In this document: in pieces, positions 2,876-61,928 of the stretch
Position numbering within the stretch: the stretch's first letter is position 1
Layout of the letters: every line of letters begins with the position of its first letter
Source: Dehalococcoidia bacterium
GTDB lineage: Bacteria > Chloroflexota > Dehalococcoidia > GIF9 > AB-539-J10
Length of the DNA stretch: 64,000 nucleotides
Direction: 5' to 3'
NCBI GenBank assembly: GCA_009619075.1
Contig: WJOY01000012.1
Span: forward strand, 8,507-72,506
Translations under genes and position numbers: made by a program
The notes under the pieces: model-generated
What the model was told of the DNA's origin: nothing
The model's database searches: none
Seen by the model: the letters and a program-made list of their open reading frames with translations, nothing else

Positions 2876-3094
2876 AATATAACTCCACTCCCTCGCCAGA
2901 TAAGGGGATGAGCGGACGAGGGCGCTCTTTTATTTCTACCTCGCAGTATATCATAGCACATCTTATTATGAGAAGTCGTTTGTAGTCGTCCATATGATTA
3001 GTGACACATCACCTCCTTTGTTACTATCAGGCTGTTTAATTTTGATTCCCGGTTCAATTTCAGCCATCTCAGAGGTGTTTCACCCCCAAATTTT

Positions 3095-5910: not shown

Positions 5911-5953
5911 GCACCGTGCACTAATTCACGCCACATACTATAATTCAGGAGAA

Positions 5954-6550
5954 ATGACTGTCATTGGCGTGACTGGCAATATAGGCAGTGGCAAAAGCAC
6001 GGTATGCCGAATTTTAGCCAAGCTTGGTGTCACCATTATTGATGCTGATGAACTGGCACACGAGACTTACAAGCCACGTAGCCAAACCTGGCAAGAGCTA
6101 ATCAACACCTTTGGTAAAAATATAGTTAAGGCTAACGAAGAAATTGACCGCCAAAAATTAGGGCAAATAGTTTTTGCCAATCCTGCCGCTTTGGCTTTGC
6201 TGAACCAGATAGTGCACCCTAGGGCATATCGTATGGCTCAAGAAAAAATCGAAGATTATCATCGCCAGGGGGCTAAAGCCATTGTGGTAGAAGCTACTTT
6301 GCTCATTGAGGCAGGATGGACAGATTTGGTGGATAAGGTCTGGTTAGTAGTAACTCCAGAGGATGTAGCAATCCGAAGACTCACTCAGCACAAAGGAATC
6401 GCCAAAGCTCAGATTTTGACTCGCCTCAAGGCACAGATGCCAGCAGAGGAAAAAATGAAATATGCCGATGAAGTAATTTACAACGCTGGCAGCCTAGGTC
6501 AGCTTGAAGCCAAAGTAACTGAGCTCTGGCATAAGCTGGGCCTGGCTTAA
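5954..6550 (+). CDS. coaE: Dephospho-CoA kinase
   Basis: 198 aa. GVTGNIGSGKST P-loop and overall CoaE architecture. Confidence 0.85.
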   Translation: MTVIGVTGNIGSGKSTVCRILAKLGVTIIDADELAHETYKPRSQTWQELINTFGKNIVKANEEIDRQKLGQIVFANPAALALLNQIVHPRAYRMAQEKIEDYHRQGAKAIVVEATLLIEAGWTDLVDKVWLVVTPEDVAIRRLTQHKGIAKAQILTRLKAQMPAEEKMKYADEVIYNAGSLGQLEAKVTELWHKLGLA

Positions 6551-8924: not shown

Positions 8925-9041
8925 GCCCAAGATTAAGGCTAAAATCTCCTGAGCCGAAAGAACTTCACTACCCAGCTTAAGCAGCCTCTCCCGGGGACGC
9001 TCACTAAGAGGCAAGTCATGAACGGTAAAGGAATCTCTCAT
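8925..9041 (-). pseudogene. radC: radC (JAB/UPF0758) N-terminal remnant
   Basis: The 39-codon ORF MRDSFTVHDLPLSERPRERLLKLGSEVLSAQEILALILG matches the RadC N-terminal HhH region (PxxERPRERLLxxG...LSDxELLAILL) and is then stopped. No JAB domain follows in any frame. Confidence 0.45.
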
Positions 9042-9156
9042 AAGCCTATTCTAGCAAAGCATCCCCCTACAATCCATCACTATCTTCAAGACTTAAGAAA
9101 GGAACTTGCCCTGTTTCGGATAATGGAAATCGGCCCTTCTTCGTTAGCTATGTAAT

Positions 9157-9495
9157 CTATGATTGCCCGCTGGCATGACTTTCATTCGCCTCTTCAGCCC
9201 TATATAGCTCTTCTATCAGCTTTATTAGAGCTTTCTTCGCTTTAAGACTGAGCTTCTGATCAGCCTTGATTGCTGGTATGGCACCTATAACCAGCCCCAC
9301 TTTGCCAGTGGCCAGGTATCCAACGGTTACCCCCAGTTCCTCAGCTAATTTTACTAGCGAGAGCAAAGATGGAATTCGTTTATCTTGCTCTATCAGTGAG
9401 ATGTGTTGTGGAGTCAAACCAAGGGCATCCGCCAAGTCTTGCTGAGTAAGATTTAGTTCTTGACGCCTTTTTCTGATCCTTTGGCCTATGCTCAT
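9157..9495 (-). CDS. XRE-family helix-turn-helix transcriptional regulator
   Basis: RIRKRRQELNLTQQDLADALGLTPQHISLIEQDKRIPSL is a canonical HTH_XRE. The start is taken at the internal ATG (MSIGQRI...). Confidence 0.7.
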   Translation of the reverse strand: MSIGQRIRKRRQELNLTQQDLADALGLTPQHISLIEQDKRIPSLLSLVKLAEELGVTVGYLATGKVGLVIGAIPAIKADQKLSLKAKKALIKLIEELYRAEEANESHASGQS

Positions 9496-9565
9496 CAAAT
9501 CATCTCGGCTAAAAAACAAGAATTTTAGCAACATTAATCATTATGAGCAAAGGCTCAACTAATAG

Positions 9566-9594
9566 TTGACAAAAAAACCTTTTTAAATTAAAAT
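9566..9594 (+). promoter_or_regulatory. Sigma-70-like promoter (TTGACA, 17 nt spacer, TAAAAT)
   Basis: TTGACA at 9566-9571 and TAAAAT at 9589-9594, about 30 nt upstream of the small zinc-ribbon ORF and divergent from the XRE regulator. Confidence 0.4.
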
Positions 9595-9623
9595 CTTGGC
9601 TGACACCCATTGGAAGGTGAACC

Positions 9624-9791
9624 TTGCTAGAAGCAAAATGTCCCAAGTGTGGCTATCACTGTTACGGCTGGGCCTTAGTCAAATCAGAGGAGCGCGTCTG
9701 CCCGAAATGCGGTAGCAAACTAGAGCTCATTCACGAGCTCAAGCCGCAGAAAGAAAAGAAACGGGCAAACGAGAACAGCAATCTACGCTAG
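9624..9791 (+). CDS. Small zinc-ribbon protein (55 aa, TTG start)
   Basis: LLEAKCPKCGYHCYGWALVKSEERVCPKCGSKLELIHELKPQKEKKRANENSNLR has two CPKCG motifs. It was missed by the 60-aa ORF cut-off. Confidence 0.4.
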   Translation: MLEAKCPKCGYHCYGWALVKSEERVCPKCGSKLELIHELKPQKEKKRANENSNLR

Positions 9792-9822
9792 GGTATTAAC
9801 TGAAGACCAAGAAAGGAACAAG

Positions 9823-11250
9823 CTAACCTTTCCCAGACGACCGCCGCCAAGTCCATTCTTCTAGAGCTAAAGCACCCCATAAAGCCAGTGATGCGGCCAA
9901 AGCTGATAACACGGCAATTAAGGCAGGATGTAGCCATACCCTTTCAGCTTGGACTGTAGGGGCTATCAGTGTTTCTCGCCAGCGGCTATCAAGCCCGTCT
10001 ATATCAAAACCATAAACCTGGGTTAAAGCTCCATCGTAGGTGTCACCTTCCTTGAAGAGGGTTAATAGATTGAGCATTTTATTTTCGCCATAATTGCGGA
10101 GAAGGTATTCCACCAGGCTATAACTCTGAGCATAGGAAAGATAAGCTTTTTCTGGTTCAGCGGAAAACGGACTGCACAAGCTGCGGACAGAAATTAGCTT
10201 ACCCTCAGAGATAGCCTGGCCCAAGTAGGCTCGGAAATAAGGGTCGAGTTCCCCCTCGTTATACATAGCTAAGCCCTCATCAAGCCAGGTGGGCAGTTCG
10301 CCATAGGGACTGAAAGTTGCCTGGTGAACGACTAAATGCGTCAGCTCGTGAACTAAAGCTTTTTTGCCCCAATCAAGCTGGTCTGGCGAAATGCCGATGG
10401 CAATTGTGCCAAACTCAGTAAAAGCGACACCTCCGGTCCACTCCCGGGGGAAAATCATGGCTCCTTGCAGGTCTCCAGCTGAAGCATAGATATATATCCT
10501 AATAGGCTTCGAGATTGCTTCGTCACTGTGCGCCTCACAATGACTGATGGGCTTCAATCTAGCAAGCCCTTGCTCACAAGCATCTATTAATTCCCGAGCA
10601 AAGGAATCATCTCCTTCATACCAGAAAAGGGTTAAATCACTCTTATTTAGGCTTTGCCAATTATAGCGGCCATCATCAAAATGCACTTCAGCTGGAGGAG
10701 TTTCAAGCTTATTTCCAGCAGCATCTCGTATCGTCCACCAATATGATATAGCCGCCCCAGGAGGCAAGCTCGATTTTCTCATATCCCAAACCCAACTAGT
10801 TTCCACTCTGGTTGCCGGAGCAAAGTCAGGCCAACCCTCGCTGGTAACCAGGGCATAATTCATCTTATCCACCTGATAATGAAGGTGCGCATCAACAATA
10901 TCAGTCTCACTCTCAGCTTCGATAGTGAAGACAAGCGCAATGGGAAAATGCACCTCCACGCTGCTATCCAAGACCGCGATGCCGCTATCAGCCTGTTTAT
11001 CTGTCACCCTGAGCCGAAGCTCTGACTCTGAACGCAGTGAAGAGGAAGAGTCCAGCGAAGGGTCTTCAGACGCCGCCCTGAGCATGACGAAGGGTTCTTC
11101 GCGGAGCCTGTCCTGAGCTAGATTCTTCGGTCGCTCCGCTCCCTCAGAATGACAGATAAGATTGCCCAGAATGTCGTTATCAGCTTGGACAAGGGAGGGG
11201 CTCAGTAGTAAGAAAAGAAGTAGAGTTACTAAGCCAATACGCTTAATCAT
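9823..11250 (-). CDS. Secreted/membrane-anchored putative zinc metallopeptidase (HExxH...E) with a repeat-derived in-frame insert
   Basis: 475 aa. Signal peptide (LLLFLLLSPSLVQA), HELTH plus a downstream EGLAMY gluzincin-like motif, and a C-terminal TM helix. Residues about 30-85 are encoded by the dispersed repeat (CHSEGAERPKNLAQDRLREEP...). Confidence 0.55.
   Translation of the reverse strand: MIKRIGLVTLLLFLLLSPSLVQADNDILGNLICHSEGAERPKNLAQDRLREEPFVMLRAASEDPSLDSSSSLRSESELRLRVTDKQADSGIAVLDSSVEVHFPIALVFTIEAESETDIVDAHLHYQVDKMNYALVTSEGWPDFAPATRVETSWVWDMRKSSLPPGAAISYWWTIRDAAGNKLETPPAEVHFDDGRYNWQSLNKSDLTLFWYEGDDSFARELIDACEQGLARLKPISHCEAHSDEAISKPIRIYIYASAGDLQGAMIFPREWTGGVAFTEFGTIAIGISPDQLDWGKKALVHELTHLVVHQATFSPYGELPTWLDEGLAMYNEGELDPYFRAYLGQAISEGKLISVRSLCSPFSAEPEKAYLSYAQSYSLVEYLLRNYGENKMLNLLTLFKEGDTYDGALTQVYGFDIDGLDSRWRETLIAPTVQAERVWLHPALIAVLSALAASLALWGALALEEWTWRRSSGKG
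11002..11155. repeat. Dispersed-repeat copy embedded in-frame within the metallopeptidase CDS
   Basis: TGTCACCCTGAGCCGAAGC...CGAAGGGTCTTC...GATTCTTCGGTCGCTCCGCTCCCTCAGAATGACAG is the same module set as the intergenic copies at 14445, 35791, 52050 and 54575. Confidence 0.6.
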
Positions 11251-27773: not shown

Positions 27774-31643
<3,870 letters not shown>

Positions 31644-44439: not shown

Positions 44440-44580
44440 TATCTCCTCTCAAAGTGAACCCCCCAACAAAGGAAAATTAACTCTTATGATTGTGATATAT
44501 TAAAGATGTGGCCTGAAACAAAACAGGCTAGACCAAGACACGCACAGAGTTCGTATATTTCGATGGTGAGGAAATGGTGG
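44440..44580 (+). promoter_or_regulatory. Conserved ~140-nt noncoding element, copy B
   Basis: See copy A. Terminal hairpin ATTTCgatggtgagGAAAT. Upstream of the glutamine-synthetase-like gene. Confidence 0.5.
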
Positions 44581-44633
44581 GCGGCGCACACAAATGAATC
44601 GTATGTGGTAAGCAACAGAATCAGGTTAACAGG

Positions 44634-45797
44634 ATGATAAAGATTAAAAAAGTTGGACTTGGAATAATAGCGGTAATAGTGGTGCTTGTTGGCTTATGGA
44701 TGTACCATGCTCACGGACTCTATGAGAAAAGTTATAGAAGCGAATATCACTACGGAATTAGGATACAACCTGATTCAGTCCTGCACAACATTACATTATT
44801 CGTGCCGTTGCCTGTATTTGAGGAAGAATCGAAAATAGGTGATGAGATTATAGTCGGAAACTATTTTATCATGGGTGGAAAGTTCTCAAAACCAGATGAT
44901 TGGGATTGCCGCATTGTCGAAACAGAGCACGGAAAGATGCTTAAAATCAATGCAGAGAAGATAGCCCCAGAGTTTCATTCTCTTCCTGTGCCTATAGAAG
45001 ATGCCGCCGAGCAAATTGTTATTGCCAAATGGATGTTAAGGATGATGGGATATAAGTATGGGGTAACCATCAGCTTTGCCCCCAAGATTTTGGTTGGACA
45101 TGCCGGTAGTGGTCTTCATATTCACACAAGATTGGTCAGAAATGGGAAGAATATGATGATTGAAGGAAGTGGGTTAAGTAGTATAGCCAAAAAGGCTATT
45201 GCTGGCTATTTAGCGCTGGCTCCCTCTCTGACTGCCTTCGGTAATACTATCCCTACCTCTTATCTGAGATTAGTCTCCCATCAGGAAGCACCAACAAATA
45301 TATGCTGGGGTGATAGAAACCGATCTGTGTTAGTAAGGGTTCCTTTAGGATGGATAAATGTTAAGAATATGGCCAGAGATGCCAATCCACAGGAGAGGAC
45401 AGAATCTTCAGGATTTATTGATAGGCAGACGGTAGAATTTCGCTGTCCTGATGGTTCGGCTAACATTTATCTTCTACTAGCTGGACTAGCTGTGGCCGCT
45501 CGACATGGATTGGAGATGCGAGGTGCGTTGGAAGTGGCTAATAAATTCTATGTGGATATAAACATCTTTTCCTCTGAACATAAGGGGATTCAGGAGAAAC
45601 TGCCTCAGCTACCTGCCTCATGCTGGGAATCAGCCAAAAGTCTTTTGAGAGATCGTGAAATATACCAGAGGAACGGTGTCTTTTCTTCTACGGTAATTGA
45701 TGGGATAGTGAAAAAGCTTAAGAGCTACAACGATAAAGACCTGAGTGAGAAATTATATGGTAGGGAAGATGAGATTAAAAAGTTGCTCGATGAATAG
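44634..45797 (+). CDS. Glutamine synthetase catalytic-domain protein with an N-terminal transmembrane anchor
   Basis: TM helix (LGIIAVIVVLVGLWMY), then GS motifs GSGLHIHTRL, CWGDRNRSVLVRVP and ANIYLLLAGLAVAARHGL. 387 aa. Confidence 0.6.
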   Translation: MIKIKKVGLGIIAVIVVLVGLWMYHAHGLYEKSYRSEYHYGIRIQPDSVLHNITLFVPLPVFEEESKIGDEIIVGNYFIMGGKFSKPDDWDCRIVETEHGKMLKINAEKIAPEFHSLPVPIEDAAEQIVIAKWMLRMMGYKYGVTISFAPKILVGHAGSGLHIHTRLVRNGKNMMIEGSGLSSIAKKAIAGYLALAPSLTAFGNTIPTSYLRLVSHQEAPTNICWGDRNRSVLVRVPLGWINVKNMARDANPQERTESSGFIDRQTVEFRCPDGSANIYLLLAGLAVAARHGLEMRGALEVANKFYVDINIFSSEHKGIQEKLPQLPASCWESAKSLLRDREIYQRNGVFSSTVIDGIVKKLKSYNDKDLSEKLYGREDEIKKLLDE

Positions 45798-45951
45798 CTC
45801 CATTGTTCGTAACATTGAAAGCCATCGCCGTGCAGTATTGAGAGCTACCACAGCGGATGGTAGAATTCCACAAGTCGAAGCGGATTAGACGAACTCTGAG
45901 CTCGTCTATATACCTGTTATCGGCTATTTGTGCGGCTCGTATTAAGGGAAT

Positions 45952-46554
45952 GTGCTCATGTTGGAACACGAACCTGGATATCTGAGGGAAGAAGATCTTG
46001 GATATCTGAGGGAAGAAGATTTTAGATATCTAACGAAACTATTGCTGTATCCTGTAGAATCAAAAGAGGTGGATTATAAGTCTGCCATGAAATTTGAGGA
46101 AGGAAAAGATTTTGCTGACAAGTTGGTAAAGCATATTTTAGCATTTGCAAATTCGGGTGGGGGACACCTGGTTATTGGCTATAAAGAGCAGGCTGATGGT
46201 AGCCTTGCTCCTGACCCAGGTATTACAGATGAAATTGTAGCCTCATATGAAGTTACCAGGTTGTGTCAGTATGTTGAAAAATACTTGGACGGGCAGGATA
46301 GAATTAAAATTATAATTTTTAAGGTAGAATTTGCAGGAATTAAGTATCCTGTAATACGTATCTATCGATTTCAAGAGTGTCCGTTTGTTTGCACTAAAGA
46401 TTGTGCTTCTACAGGAGCTAGGGGAGCTATTCTTAAAGCAGGTCGGGTATATATAAGGACTGAGGGTGCAAGGACACTTGAGGTTGCGATAGTCAAAGCA
46501 TCTCCTGAATGGAGACAATTAATAAGTGAATGTAGAAAGCGTGGTAAGGAGTAG
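45952..46554 (+). CDS. AlbA_2 / Schlafen-like (divergent AAA) domain protein, first gene of the nuclease island
   Basis: LVKHILAFANSGGGHLVIGYKEQADGS matches the AlbA_2 core. The N-terminus contains a 24-bp tandem duplication (GYLREEDL twice). Confidence 0.55.
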   Translation: MLMLEHEPGYLREEDLGYLREEDFRYLTKLLLYPVESKEVDYKSAMKFEEGKDFADKLVKHILAFANSGGGHLVIGYKEQADGSLAPDPGITDEIVASYEVTRLCQYVEKYLDGQDRIKIIIFKVEFAGIKYPVIRIYRFQECPFVCTKDCASTGARGAILKAGRVYIRTEGARTLEVAIVKASPEWRQLISECRKRGKE

Positions 46555-46559
46555 AGGTC

Positions 46560-48017
46560 ATGAAGAGTGTATCAAAGCAAATATTCTTGAATGCTCTCGT
46601 ATGCCCCACATTGGGATGGCTATTGAGGTCTGGGGAAGTTGCTAAGCAAATTACCAAGACAGAACTGACCCTGGGCGAGAGGTTTCGGATAGAGCAGGGA
46701 ATTGAGATTGGAAGGAGGGCAAGAGAACTCTACCCAGGTGGCTTATTAATAGATGACACGGATTTGGTGTCTGCTTCAAGGAAGACAGAAAGGTTGATGA
46801 ATGACCAAAATGTTTCGATAATCTTGGAGGGAGCCTTCCTTATTGACGGGTTTGTAGCTAGAGCAGATATATTGAGACGAAAAGGTAAAGGCTGGCATCT
46901 TGTTGAAGTAAAATCCAGCGTGAACGACAGAGAGGAATTCATAGATGACATGGCGTATACAGCTATGGTTGTTGACCGCTGTGGTTTTAATATCTCTAGT
47001 GTCTCGCTGTTATTAGTCTCCAAAGATTTTCGGTTAGGAATGGAAAACGAAGAACTTTTCGCGCAAATAGACCATACAGATAAAGTTCTGGTTCGAGTTG
47101 AGGAATTCAAACCTTTTTGGCAGCAAATCGAGGAAATAACCAGGACACCGGTAAAGCCAGAGCCCCGACTTCTATTTGAGTGCCGCAAATGCGAACTTTT
47201 CAAAGAGTGTCTAGGTAAAGATATTGATAATCATATATTCGACATTCCACGACTAAGTCAATCCAAATTCGACCAATTAGCAGAATTGGGAATAGTTTGT
47301 ATTAAGGCTATCCCAGATGGCTTTCCCTTGACCGAAAATCAAGCCAGGGTGAGGGAGTGTGTACAAACAAAGAATCCATTCGTTGGAGATAGACTTAAAA
47401 GTGAATTGACATCTATTTCATGGCCTGCTTATTATCTGGATTTCGAAACAGTTATGACAGCAATACCGTTATATCCCGATATCGCGCCTTATACTCAGAT
47501 ACCAACACAATACTCTATACATAAATGTTCTGATGTTGACCTTATCATTGATAACTTAGAATATTTAGCTGACCCAAGTAAGGACTGCAGAAGGGAACTT
47601 ACTGAGAATTTGATCAACAACCTTGGAGAAAATGGTAGTATAATTATTTATTCTAATTTTGAAAAGGCTGTTGTTAACAGCCTCGGGAGATTATATCCTG
47701 ACCTTTCAGAAAGACTGAATTCCTTGGTAGGACGGATGATAGACCTTGGAGCAATCATTGGAAGGAATTATTATCACCCGGATTTTCACGGAAGCACATC
47801 AATAAAGGTAACCCTTCCTGTTCTAGTGCCTGAGATGTCATATGATAATTTGGAAATTGCAGATGGCGATTCGGCTATGGCAGCTTTCGCCTATTTGGCA
47901 CTTGGCAAATATGAAGATGAGAAAGTCGAAGCAATAAAAAGGAACCTTTTGGAATATTGCAAACAAGATACACTAGCTATGGTTAAGTTACATCAACGAT
48001 TGACTGACTATGTATGA
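46560..48017 (+). CDS. DUF2779-like dual nuclease: N-terminal PD-(D/E)xK (Cas4/RecB-like) plus C-terminal DEDD 3'-5' exonuclease-like domain
   Basis: IDGFVARADIL...WHLVEVKSS (D...E-V-K), a Cys cluster (CRKCELFKEC), YYLDFET (Exo I) and YCKQDTLAMVKL (Exo III). 485 aa. Starts 6 nt after the previous gene. Confidence 0.55.
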   Translation: MKSVSKQIFLNALVCPTLGWLLRSGEVAKQITKTELTLGERFRIEQGIEIGRRARELYPGGLLIDDTDLVSASRKTERLMNDQNVSIILEGAFLIDGFVARADILRRKGKGWHLVEVKSSVNDREEFIDDMAYTAMVVDRCGFNISSVSLLLVSKDFRLGMENEELFAQIDHTDKVLVRVEEFKPFWQQIEEITRTPVKPEPRLLFECRKCELFKECLGKDIDNHIFDIPRLSQSKFDQLAELGIVCIKAIPDGFPLTENQARVRECVQTKNPFVGDRLKSELTSISWPAYYLDFETVMTAIPLYPDIAPYTQIPTQYSIHKCSDVDLIIDNLEYLADPSKDCRRELTENLINNLGENGSIIIYSNFEKAVVNSLGRLYPDLSERLNSLVGRMIDLGAIIGRNYYHPDFHGSTSIKVTLPVLVPEMSYDNLEIADGDSAMAAFAYLALGKYEDEKVEAIKRNLLEYCKQDTLAMVKLHQRLTDYV

Positions 48018-48102
48018 TCCTGCAAGTGATAGCAAAATTTATTTGGCTGCTTGCCTTCGGCACTCCGCAAGCATACAAAACAGTGATTAAGGAGAGTAAA
48101 CC

Positions 48103-49383
48103 ATGTCCAGAATAGCCATCCTTAGCGATGCACATCTTTTAATCCAAGCTGAGCGCTTTAGGGACGAGAACTACCGGTCTCCACGGGGAGAAATCTCGCT
48201 CAAAAATTTTAGCCAAGTTATCCGGCAAGTAATAGCGGAGGAACCTGAAGCGGTCATCCTTGCCGGTGATATGTTTGACGAGAGGGAAAAAGGAGGAGAG
48301 TGGATAGCGGATTCAGAAGCAGCCAAATACTGGCCCACTATTCGCAATGAACTAAAGCGCTTAACGGAATGCACTAAATATGGCATTTACGCCCTGAGAG
48401 GAAATCATGACTCTGCACCAGTGTTGAAAGAGCTTCAAGATTACCTGGGAGACAGATTCTGCTTTGTTAGAGATGAAGACAAGGAAATCGGCGACCAGCA
48501 CCTGTATTTCATGGAAACCCGCTATCGGCAGGGCACTTATAGAATCCCCGAGGAAGACCTTCCCAGGGAAGGGGAGTTGCTCATCATGCATGAAACCATA
48601 CCCTGGGGTATGCCTGGACTGGAGGAGAAGGTGTTTCAGGAGTTGGGCAAAAGGTTCTCTCTTCTATTTAACGGTCACATGCATCATTATGCCCAGGGTC
48701 CACTCGATATACCCCATCTTTATTCCCTGCCAGCCTTGATCCCATCGCAGGAGCTGAAAAATAATTTCACCATCAAATACCAATGGCCCGGCGATTTAGA
48801 CCACCCCGAAGTCAAAAACTCCCCCTTTGGCTATCTAATACTGGACGGTCATGAGATTTCATTCCAAAGATATACCCCTATACAGAACATAGTTAATGTT
48901 CGCATCGAAGGGAAAACTCCTCGCGATGTCGTCGCTGGAATCAACGAGGTCTATTCCAGACTGATGGAGCGGGAGGACAGGGATAATCTCTGGATATGGG
49001 TTTCCGCTCAAGGGGTCACTTTCAAGGACACTGTTCAAAAGGAAACCAATAAGTATTCCGAAATAAACACCATGAACATAGAGATCAAAGCGAGGAAAGA
49101 GCCTACCACGCATGCCGAATTAAAGGGACTGGAGAAGATGATAAGCCTGTCCGACCTGGAGGCAAAGGTGTTAACTTCCCTGCCCTGGCCCGATAGAGAT
49201 TTAGCCCAGAAGCTATTCGAGGAAATCTTCACCGCCGACAATTTATCCAGGAGAGCAGATAGCAACCTGGGAAGGTCTCTCTTTCAAAGGCTTCTGGAAT
49301 TATCCGCTCCTCATTACGGCGTGTCACCAGAACATGTAATTGACTTTCTTAAGACAGTAGACCCGCTGTGGAAGAGAAGGTAA
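48103..49383 (+). CDS. Mre11/SbcD-like metallophosphoesterase nuclease
   Basis: Calcineurin-fold motifs ILSDAHL, LAGDMFD, GNHD and NGHMHH. 426 aa. Confidence 0.75.
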   Translation: MSRIAILSDAHLLIQAERFRDENYRSPRGEISLKNFSQVIRQVIAEEPEAVILAGDMFDEREKGGEWIADSEAAKYWPTIRNELKRLTECTKYGIYALRGNHDSAPVLKELQDYLGDRFCFVRDEDKEIGDQHLYFMETRYRQGTYRIPEEDLPREGELLIMHETIPWGMPGLEEKVFQELGKRFSLLFNGHMHHYAQGPLDIPHLYSLPALIPSQELKNNFTIKYQWPGDLDHPEVKNSPFGYLILDGHEISFQRYTPIQNIVNVRIEGKTPRDVVAGINEVYSRLMEREDRDNLWIWVSAQGVTFKDTVQKETNKYSEINTMNIEIKARKEPTTHAELKGLEKMISLSDLEAKVLTSLPWPDRDLAQKLFEEIFTADNLSRRADSNLGRSLFQRLLELSAPHYGVSPEHVIDFLKTVDPLWKRR

Positions 49384-49389
49384 GGGAAA

Positions 49390-51714
49390 ATGAAACTGGC
49401 TAAGGTTGCTTTTGAAAACGTGATGGAACTGGAAGGCTCCATCGCCTTTCCCGAGGGGAGAGCTGTCGTTATCTATGGCGAAAACAAAGCCGGGAAGTCC
49501 AATATAATCCATGCTCTTAGGTATGCTTTCCTCAGCAAAGTAATAAGGCCCAGGAAAAGCCCGGGATACGATGAATTGAAGCTGGTGACAGGAAAAGAGA
49601 TAGCTCCTGCTGAGGGTGTGGGAAGGATACTGATAGAGTTCGAGCATAATGGTGAGCAATTTGAAATCCGCCGAGAAATCGACCGGTATAAGGATAACAA
49701 TAGAATTCTGAAAAAAGAGGCTGGAGGACTTCGAGAGCTTGATTTCAATAAGACCATAGGTAAGGAACTGAAGGCGGGATTGCTTGATGCTCTTTTCGCT
49801 CCGGATAGTGCTATGGGTTTCAATCACCTTAACGAGAAAAATATTGATGCCGTTATTCGGGAGTTATTCAAAGAGATTGGGAATGCCAAGGTGCTGGTTA
49901 AAGATTTCAAGCAGCGCGTGGAGAGACTGACGGAAGAGGCACAGGCAAAAGTCACCGGCATAGAAAGAGATTATAGCTCCTTCATAGGCGAATTGAAGGG
50001 AAATCTGAGAGAGTTACCCCTTGATTTGAGCAGCTTTGAAAGATATCAGCCTGGCAAGACAGCAGAGAAAATAAGCTGTGTCGGCGAGGAGTTGAAAAGG
50101 TACATTGATAGCATCGAGAAAGGCGAGCTCAAGGAATGGCTAAACGAAATGAGAAACCGGGCTAAGGTAGCAGAGGATGTGGAAGGGCTGCTTACTGATA
50201 GCTATCAGCTGACAGCTGACGGCTTTCGTAAGATGAAGGAGATTTCACAGGATGAGGAACGCTTGAGTCTGCTGTTGGCTGAACTTGGGGCGGTGAAGCT
50301 CGGTAGTCCTATGCCACAAGAACCGGGCAGGTTCTATGATGGCGAGTTAGATAATCGTGCCAGAATTTTTTATCAAAAACTTAGAGAGGCACAAACTCGT
50401 TATTCTAACGCCCTGTCTCTGGCTCAAGAGGAGAGAATTGACTTCAAGATTGATAATCCGGCGAGGGTTAGAAGCGACAAGGAGAAAGTGCTGCGGCTGT
50501 TGACCATGGACGTTGCCATCCCGGATGCACCCAGAGTCAAAGTTGACCTGGTCAAAATTGGTTCTGAGAGTGGTGAAGAATCTGTGCATGGACTTGTTCC
50601 CCTAAAACTCATGGACGAGGACCCTGCTTTCACCAAGCTGAGCTCAGAGCCAATTCCCGATGCACCCGAAGAGCACAAGAGGCAATATGCCGAAGCCCTC
50701 GGGAAAAGAATAGAGAAGTTAAGAATCATATGCGAGGATAAGGATAGGGCTGAGAGCTTCTTTAACAATGAGTTTACGCCCAGGCTTACTGACCTCAGCA
50801 GTTATGGCACTACCTTGATGGAAAGGGAAAAGGAGGAGAGAGAAAGGATTTCAAACCTGGCTAAGGACATATATAACAGACTGCTTCTATTCGCCCGGGA
50901 GGAAATTACAGTGCCTGCGTTGGAGTACGAGGGAGATGTAGAGCCATTCACGCTGGCCGTAAGACAAATTCTATCCCGTAAGAAGTCAGACTACACAGGG
51001 GATGTCAATGCCAAGGTGAAGTCTCTGGGCATACAGACAGAGGAGTTTAATACCCATGAGATGGATAGTCTTTTATGTCAACTTGCCGAGATGGAAAAAG
51101 GCATACCGCAATATAGCAGCACCTGGACTGACCTCACGAGGCAGAAAAGAAACGAGTGGGAAAACAACGATGCTGAATATGCCGATTTAGCCTATGTGCC
51201 TGCAGTGGTAGAGGGACTTAATAGAACCCTCGATACCATCTTACTTAACGCTTTTGATGAGCAGGAGGTAATACAGGGAATAAAAGAGATCATAGCTGAG
51301 ATAAATGACAAACTCATAGAAGAAGGGTTAGTAAATTCCTGTATTGAAATGGGCGAAGATAGCCTGCAGCTCAGCAGGACGACTTATAAAGATAGAGAGA
51401 TAACCCACCCCTGCGGAGCAGAAAGGTCCTTCTTTAGCCTGGCGGCACTGACTGCCCTGGCAATATATTTCAGGCTTCCTGTTATCATAGATGAAGCGGC
51501 GAATAACCTTGATAAGAAGCGCTTGCGAGACTTCATCTCGCTGATAAAGGAGTTTGCCGCTAGTTACGATGTTCAGTATATTCTCTCAATAAAAGAAACC
51601 GATGACTTTCCCCTTGATGGCTGGGTTCAGGAATTTGCCGATGACCTGCAAATATACCGCGTAGATTACGACGGCCACAAGAAACATATCAAGCCCATTG
51701 AGCTATATGTCTAG
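49390..51714 (+). CDS. Rad50/SbcC-like SMC-type ATPase lacking a zinc hook
   Basis: Walker A GENKAGKSN, a long coiled coil, signature-like CGAERSFFSLAALTAL, and Walker B PVIIDEAANNLD. No CxxC hook. 774 aa. Starts 7 nt after the SbcD-like gene. Confidence 0.7.
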   Translation: MKLAKVAFENVMELEGSIAFPEGRAVVIYGENKAGKSNIIHALRYAFLSKVIRPRKSPGYDELKLVTGKEIAPAEGVGRILIEFEHNGEQFEIRREIDRYKDNNRILKKEAGGLRELDFNKTIGKELKAGLLDALFAPDSAMGFNHLNEKNIDAVIRELFKEIGNAKVLVKDFKQRVERLTEEAQAKVTGIERDYSSFIGELKGNLRELPLDLSSFERYQPGKTAEKISCVGEELKRYIDSIEKGELKEWLNEMRNRAKVAEDVEGLLTDSYQLTADGFRKMKEISQDEERLSLLLAELGAVKLGSPMPQEPGRFYDGELDNRARIFYQKLREAQTRYSNALSLAQEERIDFKIDNPARVRSDKEKVLRLLTMDVAIPDAPRVKVDLVKIGSESGEESVHGLVPLKLMDEDPAFTKLSSEPIPDAPEEHKRQYAEALGKRIEKLRIICEDKDRAESFFNNEFTPRLTDLSSYGTTLMEREKEERERISNLAKDIYNRLLLFAREEITVPALEYEGDVEPFTLAVRQILSRKKSDYTGDVNAKVKSLGIQTEEFNTHEMDSLLCQLAEMEKGIPQYSSTWTDLTRQKRNEWENNDAEYADLAYVPAVVEGLNRTLDTILLNAFDEQEVIQGIKEIIAEINDKLIEEGLVNSCIEMGEDSLQLSRTTYKDREITHPCGAERSFFSLAALTALAIYFRLPVIIDEAANNLDKKRLRDFISLIKEFAASYDVQYILSIKETDDFPLDGWVQEFADDLQIYRVDYDGHKKHIKPIELYV

Positions 51715-52215
51715 TGTCATCTTGTCGTTGCGAGGCATAGCCGAAGCAATCCCCTCTCCCTTGACCCCATAATGTCACTACGAGCCCCCTTTTCTGTCAT
51801 TGCGAGCCGCAGGCGAAGCAATCCCCCTCTCCCTTGACGGGAGAGGAATAAGGTGAGGGTGAAAAATAGTGAGGCGTCTCCCACCATCATTACGAGCCCC
51901 CTCTCGTCATTGCGAGCCAAAGCGAAGCAATCTCTTTTACAATTAAAAATGTAGTGCGAGGCTTTAGCCTCGTGCACGACCCTAAAGGGTCGCACTACGA
52001 AAATCTTGGAGGCGAAGATTATTAAAACAGGAGAGGAGTCCTTCCAAATTTGTGCCAACTGTCATTCTGAGCGCGGCGAAGAATCTCCCCGTCCCAAGCC
52101 CTTCACTCTCTGTCATTCTGAGGGAGAGAAGCGACCGAAGAATCTCGCTCAGGACAGGCTCCGCGAGGGAACTCGACAAAACAATCTCAAAACTGAACCC
52201 CACCCCACAAATGAA
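51715..52215. repeat. Large mosaic hairpin-repeat cluster (island boundary)
   Basis: GTCATTGCGAG..CGAAGCAATC occurs three times, then GTAGTGCGAGGCTTTAGCCTCGTGCACGACCCTAAAGGGTCGCACTAC, TGTCATTCTGAG twice, and CGAAGAATCTC. Confidence 0.65.
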
Positions 52216-52233
52216 AACTGGCTTCGCTGTAAC

Positions 52234-52312
52234 GGTGATATAATAGATATATTAAAGATACAGGATGATACAAAGCAGGCCAGACCAAGCAAGCACGGAG
52301 TTCCTATATTTC
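52234..52312 (+). promoter_or_regulatory. Conserved noncoding element, copy C (3' 80 nt only)
   Basis: GATATATTAAAGATA...CAGGCCAGACCAAGCAAGCACGGAGTTCCTATATTTCAGCG. Upstream of the flavodoxin-like gene. Confidence 0.4.
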
Positions 52313-52456
52313 AGCGTCAGGTGATCTCTTTTTGAGCAGTTTGAAGGGGGGTGATGAGGATGAGACGCTGCTAGATGTAGGACGAGGATAAGTTCTTGTA
52401 TCCTTTGGCAGAAAACGGCTATGGCGGAGGAAAAGTTAGCATAAGGAGGTGCGGAT

Positions 52457-52921
52457 ATGTCGGCGAAAGTTATCGTTGTTTATGACTCAAAGTATGGTAA
52501 CACTAAACTCGTAGCAGAAACAATCGCAGCAGGTACGAGACAAGTTGAAGGAATGGAAACTGTCGTCAGTGGAGTCAAAGAGGTTGACCTTAACAGAATC
52601 CCCGATTATGACGTGATTTTAGTAGGCTCTCCGAATCATATAGGTGGGCCAACCAGGGGTATCAAGAAGTTTATTGACAAACTTGGCAAGCTTCCCTTAG
52701 AGGGGAAAATGTTTGCTGTTTTTGACACATACCTTGGAAAAGACTTCGAAAAGGTAGTGAAGAAAATGGAGAGGAGGATAAGCGAGAAGATCCCTGGACT
52801 GAAACCAGTGGCTCCCGGCTTATCAATAAGAGTTGAGGGGATGAAGGGTCCGATTTCAGAGGGCGAGCTTCCCAAGTGCAGGGAGTTTGGAAAGAAAATA
52901 GCAACTCAAATAAAAGCTTGA
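52457..52921 (+). CDS. Flavodoxin-like fold protein
   Basis: VIVVYDSKYGNTKLVAE flavodoxin signature, 154 aa. AAGGAGG ribosome-binding site. Confidence 0.7.
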   Translation: MSAKVIVVYDSKYGNTKLVAETIAAGTRQVEGMETVVSGVKEVDLNRIPDYDVILVGSPNHIGGPTRGIKKFIDKLGKLPLEGKMFAVFDTYLGKDFEKVVKKMERRISEKIPGLKPVAPGLSIRVEGMKGPISEGELPKCREFGKKIATQIKA

Positions 52922-53053
52922 CTTATTTCCATAGGTGGCTAACACTGAATAAAAGAGAAATGGAAACATTCCCCCAACTCTCGACAATTCAGGACCTCTT
53001 TTATCCTCAAAATGGTTAGTAAGATGGACAACACTCCATCGGGGGGCAGAAAA

Positions 53054-54574: not shown

Positions 54575-54915
54575 AGGCTTGTCCCCCTCCGCAGAGTTTA
54601 TCTCGAGCGAGATTCTTCGGTCGCTCTGCTCCCTCAGAATGACAGGAGGCGAAGGGCTCAGGGCTTAGACTCACCCTTGCAATGACATAGTGATGGCAGT
54701 CCCGTGGTTATATTCCTGGCTTTTATGAGCTATAATTCAGTTTATGTAGGAGGTACCATAGTTCAAGGGTTAAGCTAAACCAATTTTCACGGAGGGTGTT
54801 TATTTGGTACTCTAAATTAAGTGGAGAGTGTTGAGATTCTTCCCCTTCATTTCGTTCAGGGCTCTGGCTCACACGCTCAGAATGACAGGGGGGCGAAGGA
54901 CTCACAATGACAAGT
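54575..54915. repeat. Dispersed-repeat copies (two clusters, 54575-54700 and 54860-54915)
   Basis: GATTCTTCGGTCGCTCTGCTCCCTCAGAATGACAGGAGGCGAAGGG, and CTCAGAATGACAGGGGGGCGAAGGACTCACAATGACA. Confidence 0.55.
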
Positions 54916-54951
54916 AGCATTAGTAAACGCTTTCCGTCATAGGAGGTAAAA

Positions 54952-57576: not shown

Positions 57577-58455
57577 ATGATAACTCAGATTTTGCTGGCA
57601 GTTGTTGTAATACTCCTGGTCATATTGATTTTCCTTGTTATCAAAGGGAGGAGTGTCAAGCCAAGAGATATTGAAAATGCCGTATCAAGCACCTGGACGA
57701 AGCTGGGCCTGGATGAAAAGATAGGTAAGCTGGCAATTCACGCCCAGGATATTAGAGATAGCCACAGGTCAATTGAACAAATGCTCCGAGTGCCTATGGA
57801 GCGAGCGGCGCTCGGTGAAATGAGTTTGGAAACAATCCTTTCAGACCAGCTCCCTCCAGATATGTTTGGTATCAGGAAGATGATTCTCGACGGGAAAATT
57901 CCCGATGCACATATTAGGTCAACCGTGGGGCTTATTTGCATAGATTCTAAATTCCCCTTAGATAACTATAGAAAAATGGCAGAGGTTGAAGATTCCAAAG
58001 AAAAGGAGGACTTCAAAAACGATTTCCGCAAAGATGTCCGAAGTCACCTTAACAAAATAGCTGAAGATTACGTGTGTCCAGAGAAGGGCTCAGCAGAGTT
58101 TGCTTTCGCTTACATCCCCTCTGAGGCTGTTTATTATTTCTTAGTAAACGAGGAATTCGAAATGTTGCGGGACTACACTAAAAGGGGAATTCAGGTTGTA
58201 TCCCCGTTGACGCTTTCCCACAAGATTGAGCTTATCAAAGCTGGCGTTCATGCCAAAAAGCTTTCCGAAGAGGCGGAAAGTGTGAGAAAAGACCTTAATG
58301 TAATTTCCCAAAGGTTTAACGAAATTGACGAGCTATGGCGGGTATTTTACAACACACATTTAAGAAATGCCGGGGATAGGGCAGAGGAATTGGATACAGC
58401 CTATAGGAAACTAAGGGAAGAATTTGATAAGATTTCAAGAATGTCGAAGGAATAA
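57577..58455 (+). CDS. rmuC: DNA recombination protein RmuC-family
   Basis: N-terminal TM helix, then LICIDSKFPLDNYRKM and FAFAYIPSEAVYY, which match RmuC core blocks. Confidence 0.65.
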   Translation: MITQILLAVVVILLVILIFLVIKGRSVKPRDIENAVSSTWTKLGLDEKIGKLAIHAQDIRDSHRSIEQMLRVPMERAALGEMSLETILSDQLPPDMFGIRKMILDGKIPDAHIRSTVGLICIDSKFPLDNYRKMAEVEDSKEKEDFKNDFRKDVRSHLNKIAEDYVCPEKGSAEFAFAYIPSEAVYYFLVNEEFEMLRDYTKRGIQVVSPLTLSHKIELIKAGVHAKKLSEEAESVRKDLNVISQRFNEIDELWRVFYNTHLRNAGDRAEELDTAYRKLREEFDKISRMSKE

Positions 58456-58511: not shown

Positions 58512-59684
58512 ATGAAATTATTAGTTATAGGTCTAGGTCAATGTGGCGGCAGAATTGCCGATAGGTTCGCTCGGCTAAATAAGAGGGCGCGTGCTCTGCG
58601 GAAAATCAATATCATTGCCGATGCCTTTGCTGTTAACACAGATGTTGCTGATTTAAGTGGATTACGCACTATCAAATCTGATTACAAACACAGAATTCTT
58701 ATCGGGGGGCAACGGACCAATGGTCATGGAGTAGGTAAGGTAAGTGAACTTGGCGCCGAGATAGCGAGGGAAGATACTGATAAGATCATAGATGCTATAA
58801 GAAGGTCAGAGCAGTTCTATGAGACAGACGCCTTCTTGTTGGTTGCTGCTGCTGCCGGTGGCACTGGTTCTGGATCAATAGCAGTGCTAACGCAGTATTT
58901 GAAACAGCGCTATATAGGAAAGCCGGTCTACAATGTTATCGTTTTGCCATTTAGGCAAGAAGAAACAACAGAATCAAGAGCTGTTTACAACACGGCTATG
59001 TGCCTCAAGTCTACCTACTTAGTGGCTGATGCGATAATTCTTATTGACAACCAAAGGTATGTCAAAAAAGATTCTCCGGCCGGAAACAACCTGGCGGTGA
59101 TTAATGCCCGAGTAGTTGAACCATTTTACAATTTGCTTTGCGCTGGTGAAGAGAGGAACAAAAAATACATTGGGGCAAGAACGCTTGACGCTGGAGACAT
59201 AATACAGACTCTGGCAGGATGGACAATAATTGGCGAAGGTAAATCGCCAATCCCACGAAGGATACCCCTATTTGGACCAAAACGTGATTTCAGAGCCAAG
59301 ATGGATGAAACCAGCAAAGCAGCTCACGCTATGGATCAAGCCCTAGGTGAGTTATCGCTCACATGCGATCCTAAAAATGCTGGGAGGGCTTTATACCTTG
59401 TCACCGCACCGCCCAAAGAAATGCATATGGAGATAATCAAGGAACTTGGGGACAATTTAAGCACTGTGGCTCCAGATGCTTTAATACGGAGCGGTGATTA
59501 CCCTAGACAGAAAGGTTCGCTGTATGTCACTGTAATCCTATCTGAAATTAGCAGTGTCAGGAAAATCACGAACTACTTTACCAGAGCAATTGACTTAATT
59601 TCTGTTATCAAAGCTAAGCGTGGAGTAGAGTACTCAAACAGAAAACTCGCAGAAACCTTCGCTGATATCCCTCTATTACTATAA
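58512..59684 (+). CDS. CetZ-like tubulin/FtsZ-superfamily GTPase (full length)
   Basis: IGLGQCGGRIADRF (tubulin/CetZ-type G-box), AAAGGTGSGS (tubulin-type GGGTGSG, not FtsZ GGGTGTG), T7-loop TLDAGDI, C-terminal GDYP. 390 aa. The blocks NGHGVGKVSELGAEIAREDTDKI and DAFLLVA...PVYNVIVLP resemble haloarchaeal CetZ. Confidence 0.75.
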   Translation: MKLLVIGLGQCGGRIADRFARLNKRARALRKINIIADAFAVNTDVADLSGLRTIKSDYKHRILIGGQRTNGHGVGKVSELGAEIAREDTDKIIDAIRRSEQFYETDAFLLVAAAAGGTGSGSIAVLTQYLKQRYIGKPVYNVIVLPFRQEETTESRAVYNTAMCLKSTYLVADAIILIDNQRYVKKDSPAGNNLAVINARVVEPFYNLLCAGEERNKKYIGARTLDAGDIIQTLAGWTIIGEGKSPIPRRIPLFGPKRDFRAKMDETSKAAHAMDQALGELSLTCDPKNAGRALYLVTAPPKEMHMEIIKELGDNLSTVAPDALIRSGDYPRQKGSLYVTVILSEISSVRKITNYFTRAIDLISVIKAKRGVEYSNRKLAETFADIPLLL

Positions 59685-60275: not shown

Positions 60276-61928
60276 CTAGCCTTGCTCCACTTCATCATTC
60301 TCGGTAGCTTCTTCCTCAGCATGTTCAGCTTTATGAGCGGCATACATTTGAGCCAGGAAATCCAACCTTGCTTGAATTTCCCTTCTAGACTCTTTTGGCT
60401 CCCTCTTTTCTTCTGCAACAGCTTCAGCCTTACTTAAAGGCTCCTCAATCCCCTTGCTTACCTTTTCAGCTCCACCCATCGCTTGCTCAAATACTCGTAT
60501 TGATGCCTTTGCCGCCTTTCTAGCTGATTTAGTTGTTTCCTCAGTCCTATTGATCGCCTCTTCGAACGCCCTTACCGCTGTTATAACGGCCTCCTTGGCT
60601 TCCCTTACCGCTCTCTCAGTAACTTCCCTGGCTACTTGTGTTGCTTCCTCAGCGGCCTTCATGGCCGCCTGGCCTATCTCCTCAGCTCTGGCTATGGCCT
60701 CTTGGGAGGCTTTCTTTGCCTCCTCGGCAGTTTCCTTAGCCGCTTGATCTGTCTCCTCAAGCCTACCTACAGCTTCCTGGGATGCTTTTCTTGATCCCTC
60801 GGCATCCCCCATGACTGCCTGGCCTATCTCCTCAGCTCTGGCTATGGCCTCTTGAGAGGCTTTCTTTGCCTCCTCGGCAGCCTCCTTAGCCGCTTGACCT
60901 ATCCCTTCAACCCTGCTTATAGCTTCTTGGGATGAGTTTCTTGATTCCTCAGCAGCCTCCACGGCCACCTGGTTCATCTCCTCAGCTCTGGCTATAGCCT
61001 CTTGGGAAGCCTTCATTGATGCTTCAGCAGATTCCTTGACCCATCTGACCGATGCCTCAGTTCTGCTTATAGCTTTCTGAGATGCTTTTATCACTGTTTT
61101 AGCCTCTTTCTTGGTTGTTTTGCTTATTTCACTGGCCCTGCTTATTACTTCCTCAAATGCCCTTGCGGACTCTTCGGTAGACTCCTTAGCCGATATGCTC
61201 ACTTTATTGGCTCTGCTTATTGCCTCCTCGAATGCCCTGGCAGACTCCTCGGCAGACTTCGTGGCTGCTTGGCTTGTCCTTTCAGCTTTGCTTACTGCTT
61301 CCTGTGATGCTTTCTGCGCTTCCTTGGCAGCTTTGGCGGCTGCCTTGCCTCCCTCCTCAGCTCTGGTTATAGCTTCTCGGGAGGCCCACATCGCTTCCTG
61401 AGCGGTTCCCATGACCGCCTGGCCTACTTCCTTAGCTCTGGTTATAGCCTCTTGGGAGACTTTCGTCGCCTCCTGAGCGGTTTCCATGGCCGCCTGGCCT
61501 ATCTCCTCAGTTCTGGCTATAGCCTCTTGGGAGGCTTTCATCGATGCTTCAGCAGCCTCCCTGGCCCATTTGACCAATGCCTCAGTTCTGCTCACCGCTT
61601 CCTTAAATTCCTTTGCTGATGACTCAGCAGAGTCCGTGACTGATTTGATCGATGCCTCAGCCTTGCTTATCGCCTCCTGTGATGCTTTTATCGATGCTTC
61701 AGTAACCTCCTTGGATGCTTGGCTTATCCTTTCAGCTCTGCTTACTGCTTCCTGTGATGCTCTCTTTGCCTCCTCAGCAGCCTTCATGGCTGCCAGGCTT
61801 ATCTCCTCAACCCTGCTTATAGCTTCTTGAGATGCCCTCTTTGATTCCTCAGCAGCCTGCCTGGCCGCTTGACTTAGCTTCTCAGCTCTTGCTACTGCCT
61901 GCTCAAATGTCGCAACACTACTTTTCAT
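60276..61928 (-). CDS. Tandem-repeat alpha-helical protein (~22 copies of a 22-residue, 2x11-mer amphipathic repeat)
   Basis: The consensus ASQEAIaRaEEIGQAAMkAAEEAKk is repeated along 550 aa. The DNA contains near-identical internal duplications (for example 60650-60730 versus 60800-60880, and 61380-61460 versus 61470-61540). Convergent with the CetZ-like gene. Confidence 0.6.
   Translation of the reverse strand: MKSSVATFEQAVARAEKLSQAARQAAEESKRASQEAISRVEEISLAAMKAAEEAKRASQEAVSRAERISQASKEVTEASIKASQEAISKAEASIKSVTDSAESSAKEFKEAVSRTEALVKWAREAAEASMKASQEAIARTEEIGQAAMETAQEATKVSQEAITRAKEVGQAVMGTAQEAMWASREAITRAEEGGKAAAKAAKEAQKASQEAVSKAERTSQAATKSAEESARAFEEAISRANKVSISAKESTEESARAFEEVISRASEISKTTKKEAKTVIKASQKAISRTEASVRWVKESAEASMKASQEAIARAEEMNQVAVEAAEESRNSSQEAISRVEGIGQAAKEAAEEAKKASQEAIARAEEIGQAVMGDAEGSRKASQEAVGRLEETDQAAKETAEEAKKASQEAIARAEEIGQAAMKAAEEATQVAREVTERAVREAKEAVITAVRAFEEAINRTEETTKSARKAAKASIRVFEQAMGGAEKVSKGIEEPLSKAEAVAEEKREPKESRREIQARLDFLAQMYAAHKAEHAEEEATENDEVEQG

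Follow-up and report, generated by a model that had tools for sequence, protein, structure and literature searches.

SbcCD and Mre11-Rad50 are encoded by two-gene operons, in which the gene of the nuclease lies directly 5' of that of the ATPase. Among SMC-like proteins, the Rad50/SbcC branch is considered to be marked by a zinc hook, expected where the coiled coil of the ATPase has its apex. Lamassu systems possess hookless, shortened ATPases that have been proposed to descend from SbcCD (PMC12663957). A further pair is known in B. subtilis, SbcE/SbcF (YhaN/YhaO); SbcE is described as resembling SbcC most, but with a central domain of its own, and a part in the repair of double-strand breaks is attributed to it (PMC2811018). 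Prokaryotic Schlafens are established anti-phage effectors with Ex4(E/D)xK as their catalytic motif (PMC13056530), while the DUF2779 family, of uncharacterised function, combines a Cas4-like PD-(D/E)xK nuclease domain similar to DUF83 with an RNase H-like 3'-5' exonuclease (PMC3985635, PMC13621843). Relatives of these proteins are encoded side by side in a 64,000-nucleotide (nt) stretch of contig WJOY01000012.1 from a Dehalococcoidia bacterium (hereafter, the window). Four genes follow each other there on the + strand: g1 (45952-46554), a 200-amino acid (aa) AlbA_2/Schlafen protein; g2 (46560-48017), a 485-aa DUF2779 protein made of a Cas4-like iron-sulfur (Fe-S) nuclease and a DEDD exonuclease; g3 (48103-49383), a 426-aa nuclease of the Mre11/SbcD fold; and g4 (49390-51714), a 774-aa hookless Rad50/SbcC-like ABC ATPase.

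The original prediction considered these genes as a single four-gene operon, an island acting as one system. As to the genes themselves, it holds: analysis of the open reading frames (ORFs) confirms their coordinates, their common direction, and their tight spacing (gaps of 5, 85, and 6 nt for g1/g2, g2/g3, and g3/g4), and the four domain calls are upheld by profile searches of g1-g4 and by invariant motifs in the family alignments of g2-g4. The system does not hold. In this strain, two modules of two genes each, independent of one another, have likely come to lie side by side: the SbcCD-like pair g3-g4 and the pair g1-g2. The former is syntenic in relatives devoid of g1 and g2, while g2 and g1-g2 lie elsewhere without g3 and g4, and the arrangement of DUF2779 with SbcCD-like genes is found in this strain alone.

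The linkage of the genes was established by inspecting the neighborhoods of homologs of g4, with identities between 96% and 50%, and by tblastn of the window proteins against 34 fetched loci. In every locus with upstream sequence, g3 lies directly 5' of g4, an order also kept in Altiarchaeales (52%/50% identity) and in a more distant clade (~40% identity). Neither g1 nor g2 occurs in any of the ~30 loci with g3-g4, even where a relative of 91-96% identity has the pair at the same position. Relatives of 66-96% identity keep g3-g4 at the chromosomal position seen in the window, with conserved flanks formed by a superoxide dismutase and an MJ1433-like gene upstream, and by flavodoxin, amine oxidase, YjeF, alcohol dehydrogenase, and CetZ-like genes downstream. 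No conserved third gene was observed beside g3-g4 in the other loci inspected. The two genes are an obligate pair, vertically inherited at a fixed position in a Dehalococcoidia clade, which has moved to Altiarchaeota by transfer at least once.

The homologs of g2 have another context. For the closest homologs on long contigs (82-85% identity), this conserved Chloroflexota context reads radical SAM, Memo, AMMECR1, (nitroreductase), DUF2779, and MgsA/RarA, and g1, g3, and g4 are all absent there. None of the six loci carrying g2 or g1-g2 harbors g3 or g4. Close relatives of g1 are confined to three metagenome contigs (63-79% identity), two of which have g2 immediately after g1; on L035, a metagenome contig of 550 kb, the cassette of g1 and g2 fills the exact slot between AMMECR1 and MgsA. 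On that contig, a DUF4917/SIR2-like gene (2245-3075, + strand) is located just 5' of the AmmeMemoRadiSam genes and the cassette. Unlike its Chloroflexota counterparts, the window g2 is displaced from this usual context. Using tblastn of the L035 flanking proteins, Pfam, and the ORF list, the AmmeMemoRadiSam cluster was located in the window on the - strand (radical SAM, 4489-5508; AMMECR1, 3742-4257), followed by neither DUF2779 nor MgsA: the usual g2 slot is empty. No Memo gene lies between the radical SAM and AMMECR1 genes. Beyond the cluster, ~870 nt lacking any sizeable ORF separate it from a PhoU_div/PHO4 pair for phosphate transport; these are the positions taken by Memo, DUF2779, and MgsA in other Chloroflexota.

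The segment that carries g1 and g2 is flanked by two breakpoints. In blastn comparisons, the homology to relatives L008 (96%) and L034 (91%) stops at 44565 and 44454, respectively, and resumes at 48102, one base 5' of the g3 ATG. The strain-specific segment (44566-48101, + strand) is ~3.5 kb long and takes the place of the native sequence that separates the MJ1433-like gene from g3, a slot whose content differs among close strains: DUF3795 and an Asp/Glu racemase in L008 (1.8 kb), ordinary metabolic genes in L034 (7.3 kb; acyl-CoA dehydrogenase, AHSA1, DUF6326, and racemase), and a chimeric ORF, g1, and g2 in the window (3.5 kb). This chimera, orf387 (44634-45797, + strand), forms the left junction and was delineated by Pfam and nucleotide alignment. 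Its N-terminal ~122 aa come from a conserved local gene (window 44595-44999 aligns with 7193-7576 of relative L010 at 68% nucleotide identity, the match being the 5' part of a 262-aa gene), and its residues 123-360 match Pfam Gln-synt_C, starting at profile position 112 out of 344. It is a probable rearrangement scar. In this strain, g1-g2 and a glutamine-synthetase gene fragment have replaced the native DNA up to one base before the start of g3.

A candidate promoter 5' of g1, TTGAGA-17-TAGAAT with a TG extension (45838-45866, + strand; 10/12 in a consensus scan), may serve g1-g2 and, via read-through, g3-g4. The 85-nt spacer between g2 and g3 (48018-48102, + strand) contains a strong ribosome-binding site, AAGGAGAG, and is unrelated to the native 264-nt region found 5' of g3 in relatives, the upstream sequence of L008 being different. 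It displays no terminator-like site on the + strand and no significant structure (RNA fold z-score 0.39). The four genes are probably co-transcribed in this strain through an accident of rearrangement, not by design. A second strain-variable spot exists near g3-g4: in the 96%-identical relatives, L008 (16773-20390) and, at the equivalent place, L018, the genes for amine oxidase and YjeF are separated by a 1205-aa MmeI-type restriction-modification gene, which the window does not have at the corresponding site (54576-54941).

The g3 protein matches Pfam Metallophos above its cut-off (3.7e-10). All five metallophosphoesterase motifs I-V (DxH, GD, GNHD/E, H, and GHxH) are intact, and residues D9, H11, G55, D56, G100, N101, H102, H163, H192, and H194 are invariant in 29 sequences. 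An AlphaFold2 model (predicted local distance difference test, pLDDT, 89.4) comprises a nuclease domain, a capping domain, and, after a linker, a C-terminal helical domain (residues 349-424), presumed to bind the ATPase as does the Rad50-binding domain of Mre11. The best 50 Foldseek matches in the PDB are all Mre11/SbcD proteins, aligned over 370-390 columns covering the nuclease and capping domains. P. furiosus Mre11 (3e-14) ranks first, ahead of the SbcD proteins of S. aureus and E. coli, and hhalign returns a probability of 96% with E. coli SbcD. The Mre11/SbcD-like call made for g3 holds, while its matches to SbcD/Mre11 sequence models are weak. Sequence similarity of g3 and g4 to E. coli SbcD and SbcC is confined to ~90 N-terminal residues, and no curated SbcC, SbcD, Mre11, or Rad50 model reaches its cut-off for the pair. 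Among the models TIGR00619 (sbcd) and NF041029-31 (Mre11), the best for g3 is TIGR00619, with 25.3 bits vs 77.65; g4 likewise stays below the Rad50 models NF041034 and PRK01156, with 23.6 bits vs 1000 for Rad50_Sulf.

The g4 protein matches Pfam SMC_N/AAA_23, with 34.4 bits for SMC_N vs a cut-off of 40. It harbors a Walker A motif (GENKAGKS), a signature (CGAERS), and a Walker B/D-loop (VIIDEAANNLD), and the alignment of its family reveals the conserved motifs GxNxxGK[ST], HPxG[AS]E[RK], and PVIIDEAANNLD. In profile-to-PDB alignments, the signature and Walker B align to those of Rad50 and SMC heads, CGAERS standing opposite SGGERA. The AlphaFold2 model (pLDDT 77) displays an N-terminal head (1-130), a C-terminal head (650-774), and two helical arms of intermediate length, ~220 residues each (~152-372 and ~427-644), that form an antiparallel coiled coil. 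Between the arms lies the apex (~374-426), in and around which K389, I390, D411, F414, P421-I422-P423, and E427 are invariant in the family. No conserved Cys column is present in the 11 family members aligned, and therefore no CxxC zinc hook; in a second tier of relatives no CxxC is conserved either, a single sequence having a CKSC located off the apex. The missing hook, already proposed from the window sequence, is hence a family trait.

The likeness of g3-g4 to SbcCD/Mre11-Rad50 thus comprises the two-gene operon with the nuclease gene directly 5' of the ATPase gene, the g3 fold with its capping domain and all its phosphoesterase motifs, and the split ABC heads and antiparallel coiled coil of g4. 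Differences are seen in the ATPase. A conserved Pro-rich apex is found where the zinc hook is expected, and the arms are shorter, with 774 aa in total vs 1048 aa in E. coli SbcC. The Q-loop Gln of Rad50 is replaced by an Asp in g4, an invariant FAPDS standing opposite FLPQG of T. maritima Rad50 in the profile-to-PDB alignment; the second tier carries IAPSN there. At the position where the H-loop His is expected, the g4 family would have an invariant Lys (K735), as judged from the alignment. Because the zinc hook, the Q-loop Gln, and the curated thresholds all failed, the pair is not filed as a member of the Rad50/SbcC family. It also recalls SbcE/SbcF, by analogy only, as a second non-canonical pair of an SbcC-like ATPase and an Mre11-like phosphoesterase; the AAA_27 (YhaN-type) Pfam match of g4 is insignificant (0.045).

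The g4 family is real, small, and isolated in sequence. When 1.84 billion cluster representatives were searched exhaustively with HMMER, only 133 matched at E<=1e-3, and at E<=1e-30 only 25 clusters did; ~12 are full-length clusters of 750-775 aa. In the second tier, composed of proteins of 779-836 aa, the g4 signature, Walker B, and apex motif are all present, and past it only generic P-loop matches are found. A pattern-limited scan of the genomes of 185,579 species, one genome per species, identified 17 loci, 16 in metagenome-assembled genomes of Dehalococcoidia/Chloroflexota and one in Candidatus Altarchaeum, the closest relative of g4 having 96% identity. This distribution, together with the DNA polymerase III delta-prime encoded in the window, assigns the host to a Dehalococcoidia bacterium; an archaeal origin, considered because of the CetZ-like tubulin gene 3' of the pair, is rejected on these grounds. 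Both genes of the pair are under strong purifying selection, with ratios of nonsynonymous to synonymous substitution rates (dN/dS) of 0.08-0.12 (0.08-0.10 for g3) and a dS equal to that of neighboring housekeeping genes, e.g., YjeF. In L038, a locus of the distant clade, the pair of Mre11-like and ATPase genes lies beside another SMC/SbcC-like ATPase gene (5770-6093 and 8937-11188, both on the - strand). The extra SMC-like gene shows a weak SbcC_Walker_B match and PADLOC mad3/LmuB matches, and its 434-aa partner has no Pfam match; examined as a candidate canonical Mre11-Rad50, these extra genes may belong to another SMC-like system, distinct from the pair. In the window, a gene of the RmuC family, linked to DNA recombination, is found at 57577-58455 (+ strand), ~6 kb 3' of g3-g4, and also near the pair in the 66% relatives L005 and L024; this loose linkage may or may not be meaningful.

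In the other module, g1 matches PF04326 SLFN_AlbA_2 above the gathering score (E=2.8e-10, 41.2 bits vs 25.3), in agreement with the initial AlbA_2/Schlafen call, and its translation keeps the Schlafen motif as E36-SKEV-D41-Y-K43. By its domain and catalytic motif it resembles the prokaryotic Schlafen (pSlfn) defense nucleases, but it is a bare 200-aa domain without their fused sensor domains. It also matches phrog_38563 (7e-12) and, weakly, PADLOC PDC-S50 (5e-4), and it is faster-evolving, with a dN/dS of 0.56 relative to L035. Alone or with g2, it may act in defense. Searching the PDB with the g1 and g2 sequences yielded nothing significant; g1 alone gave a weak match, to CbCash, a Schlafen associated with CRISPR (0.022).

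The g2 protein matches PF11074 DUF2779 over residues 291-414 (7e-34, 117.2 bits vs a cut-off of 23.3). The N-terminal half is Cas4-like (PADLOC, 5.8e-8), and the C-terminal part gives a signal of the RNase H superfamily (RNase_H_2, 0.005). It is composed of a Cas4-like PD-(D/E)xK domain with a four-Cys cluster of the Fe-S type, followed by a DEDD/RNase H-like 3'-5' exonuclease. In the family alignment, D103/E116/K118, C15/C208/C211/C217, D294/E296, and Y466/D470 are invariant or nearly so, which, with the PF11074 and Cas4 matches, bears out the prediction of a dual nuclease. The family has more than 3,000 members, with 60-89% identity, across phyla, and the dN/dS of g2 (~0.16) indicates purifying selection. 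Mycoplasma MMSYN1_0389, also a DUF2779 protein, has the same two-domain architecture, but two cysteines instead of all four Cas4-type cysteines of g2, and a DUF2779 member is reported to be quasi-essential in the minimal Mycoplasma cell (PMC13621843). The conserved position of g2 beside mgsA/rarA in Chloroflexota suggests a function in replication or repair.

The view that g1-g4 constitute one novel nuclease/ATPase system, for defense or for end resection, draws on the common direction of the genes and their gaps of a few to 85 nt, on the spacer between g2 and g3 being devoid of terminator and stable structure, and on the replacement of the native promoter region of g3, as a result of which g3-g4 probably rely on upstream transcription here. 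Such a system is nevertheless very improbable in view of the ~30 g3-g4 loci, all without g1 and g2 even at the same position in the closest relatives, of the six g2 or g1-g2 loci lacking g3 and g4, and of a junction bearing a chimera of gene fragments, typical of accidental rearrangement. Slightly more improbable still is a bacterial analogue of the archaeal HerA-NurA-Mre11-Rad50 resection operon with g2 in the role of NurA, an alternative offered in the original prediction. An Mre11-/Rad50-like pair with an extra nuclease gene upstream does recall such an operon, but g1 and g2 give no HerA or NurA match in Pfam or NCBIfam, g2 is a Cas4/DEDD fusion outside the NurA fold family, and it never adjoins g3-g4 in other genomes, archaeal ones included; in the archaeal loci, HerA and NurA are not among the neighbors of the pair. 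Independence of the two modules being retained, g1-g2 may be considered in its own right as a small defense module that landed beside an unrelated repair pair, with a Schlafen-type RNase effector and a Cas4/DEDD partner or sensor. The established anti-phage role of prokaryotic Schlafens, whose motif g1 keeps (PMC13056530), the adjacency of g1 and g2 in two other contigs, the fast evolution of g1, its PDC-S50 and phrog_38563 matches, and the DUF4917/SIR2-like gene nearby in L035 all point this way. The proposal is nonetheless doubtful: the g2 family is large, highly conserved, and usually without g1, its Chloroflexota context by mgsA/rarA is a housekeeping one, a DUF2779 gene is reportedly quasi-essential in the minimal Mycoplasma (PMC13621843), g1 has none of the fused sensor domains typical of defensive Schlafens, and g2 receives no viral or defense-model support past its similarity to Cas4.

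For g3-g4, the analogy with SbcCD favors, on balance, an ATP-gated end/hairpin nuclease of the SbcCD type devoted to chromosome maintenance. With ATP bound, two g4 heads would come together and grip a DNA end or hairpin, and a g3 dimer, tethered at the base of the coiled coil by its C-terminal helices, would then cleave; the complex would process double-strand breaks, hairpins, or blocked ends. Gene content, folds, motifs, linkage, synteny, breakpoints, and selection are observed, whereas we infer complex formation, the substrates, the assignment to repair rather than to defense, and co-transcription. Two features favor this nuclease, namely the absence of an LmuA-type effector and the presence of a complete, motif-intact SbcD-like partner. 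The pair could instead be a stand-alone immune nuclease derived from SbcCD, sensing foreign DNA ends or palindromes, at a stage between SbcCD and Lamassu. The match of g4 to PDLC03859, one of several LmuB models in PADLOC, is full-length and, at 3.5e-13, better than with any SbcC/Rad50 profile; g4 is hookless with short coiled coils, as in the Lamassu lineage (PMC12663957); and the family is rare and patchy, with inter-domain transfer. Against this, the pair shows stable synteny among housekeeping genes, with dS and dN/dS values matching those of its neighbors, LmuA models have no match in g1, g2, or g3 (PADLOC), and the family profile detects Rad50/SMC heads, not the solved LmuB sequences. 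In Foldseek, the best match of g4 is Rad50 (7zr1, 1e-17), far above LmuB (1e-8), with generic SMCs next after Rad50. Nor is there a defense enrichment among 130 neighboring ORFs of 17 loci, in which the PADLOC matches amount to a single methyltransferase, the additional SMC-like gene, and radical-SAM matches of a generic kind, the neighbors being metabolic or housekeeping genes. An immune function is thus unlikely, and g3-g4 is not Lamassu because it has no LmuA; it also has no separate LmuC, the partner of its ATPase is a catalytically intact SbcD/Mre11-like nuclease, and the pair lies outside defense islands. Slightly less likely again is an unrecognised SbcCD-type branch with zinc-free dimerisation at the apex and a modified ATPase site, acting as a stand-alone sensor-nuclease against foreign DNA, which would make it a living SbcCD-Lamassu intermediate that has so far kept its SbcD nuclease instead of exchanging it for a modular effector. 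Several points also weigh against a chromosome-maintenance nuclease that is independent of g1-g2. The repair role is argued wholly from homology and context, and the best sequence-profile match of g4 is to LmuB, not to SbcC/Rad50. The apex is modeled at low confidence (pLDDT 40-55), and the Q- and H-loop substitutions could mean an ATPase cycle far from that of Rad50. The family is rare (17 loci in the species scan, 25 clusters) and has crossed domains (Altiarchaeum). Rarity and domain crossing are typical features of accessory or defense genes. Finally, with short gaps and no terminator, the four genes may be truly co-expressed here, and a functional interaction of g1/g2 with g3/g4 may have been acquired secondarily.

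Other origins were tried for these genes. A named defense system was rejected, as anticipated in the original prediction: in PADLOC, g3 has no match, g2 matches Cas4 models only, g4 generic ABC/SMC ATPase models, and g1 the weak PDC-S50 model. A phage origin is rejected: a search of 2.9 million viral contigs detected no relative of either g4 or g2, and PHROGs gave only weak N-terminal SbcC/SbcD-like matches. A defense-island context is rejected after the PADLOC scan of the 130 ORFs in the 17 loci.

A REP-like (repetitive extragenic palindromic) repeat cluster follows g4 at 51720-52130. It is composed of GTCATTGCGAG...GCGAAGCAATC units (repeat families D1-D5 and I1) and includes a 24-nt palindrome at 51951-51998. 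This hairpin-repeat cluster had been taken for the downstream boundary of an island. The repeat core is also present, however, at four other sites of the window (1128 and 1170, within 1128-1181; 5636, spanning 5636-5647; and 28836, spanning 28836-28847), with six matches vs 0.26 expected by chance, and the intergenic region 3' of g4 is common to relatives without g1 and g2 (51773-52926 aligns with L008 at 84.6%, and is also homologous in L018). With scattered repeats, in a region that relatives also have, the cluster is not a border. The "D-type motif" proposed as the upstream boundary could not be identified. The true discontinuities lie at ~44454-44565 and at 48102, the latter inside the proposed island. 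More generally, intergenic repeats of the REP or MITE (miniature inverted-repeat transposable element) type are dispersed in the window, several tandem copies being found 3' of g4.

Beyond these modules, the window harbors a tubulin-family gene with a CetZ C-terminal domain (58512-59684, + strand; Tubulin 3e-33, CetZ_C 1.5e-15), kept at 79-82% identity in relatives, and a second CetZ_C-containing ORF at its start (15-503, + strand). CetZ is regarded as an archaeal tubulin family, and its stable presence in a Dehalococcoidia lineage is unexpected. At 60276-61928 (- strand), a 550-aa repetitive protein rich in Ala, Glu, Ser, and Lys contains many "...ASQEAI(S/A)RAEE..." units and is probably an extended coiled coil; its gene accounts for the strong AT and GC skew at 60-62 kb. 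Searches for Rfam families and tRNAs in the window returned none.

The four-gene "system" is a rearrangement artefact that would have misled defense-system discovery, and tight gene spacing alone does not define a system. The g1-g2 pair associates a minimal Schlafen domain with the widespread, uncharacterised DUF2779, and offers a testable handle on the function of the latter. The g3-g4 pair is most likely a rare, uncharacterised DNA-end-processing nuclease/ATPase related to Mre11-Rad50. As a conserved and selected Mre11-Rad50-type pair that is hookless and has an altered Q-loop, it represents a natural experiment on tethering and ATP gating, is relevant to the evolution of Lamassu from SbcCD that was recently put forward, and reasonably merits structural and biochemical study. 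Dehalococcoidia comprise environmentally important organohalide-respiring and subsurface bacteria, and g3-g4 may belong to their poorly known DNA-repair repertoire.

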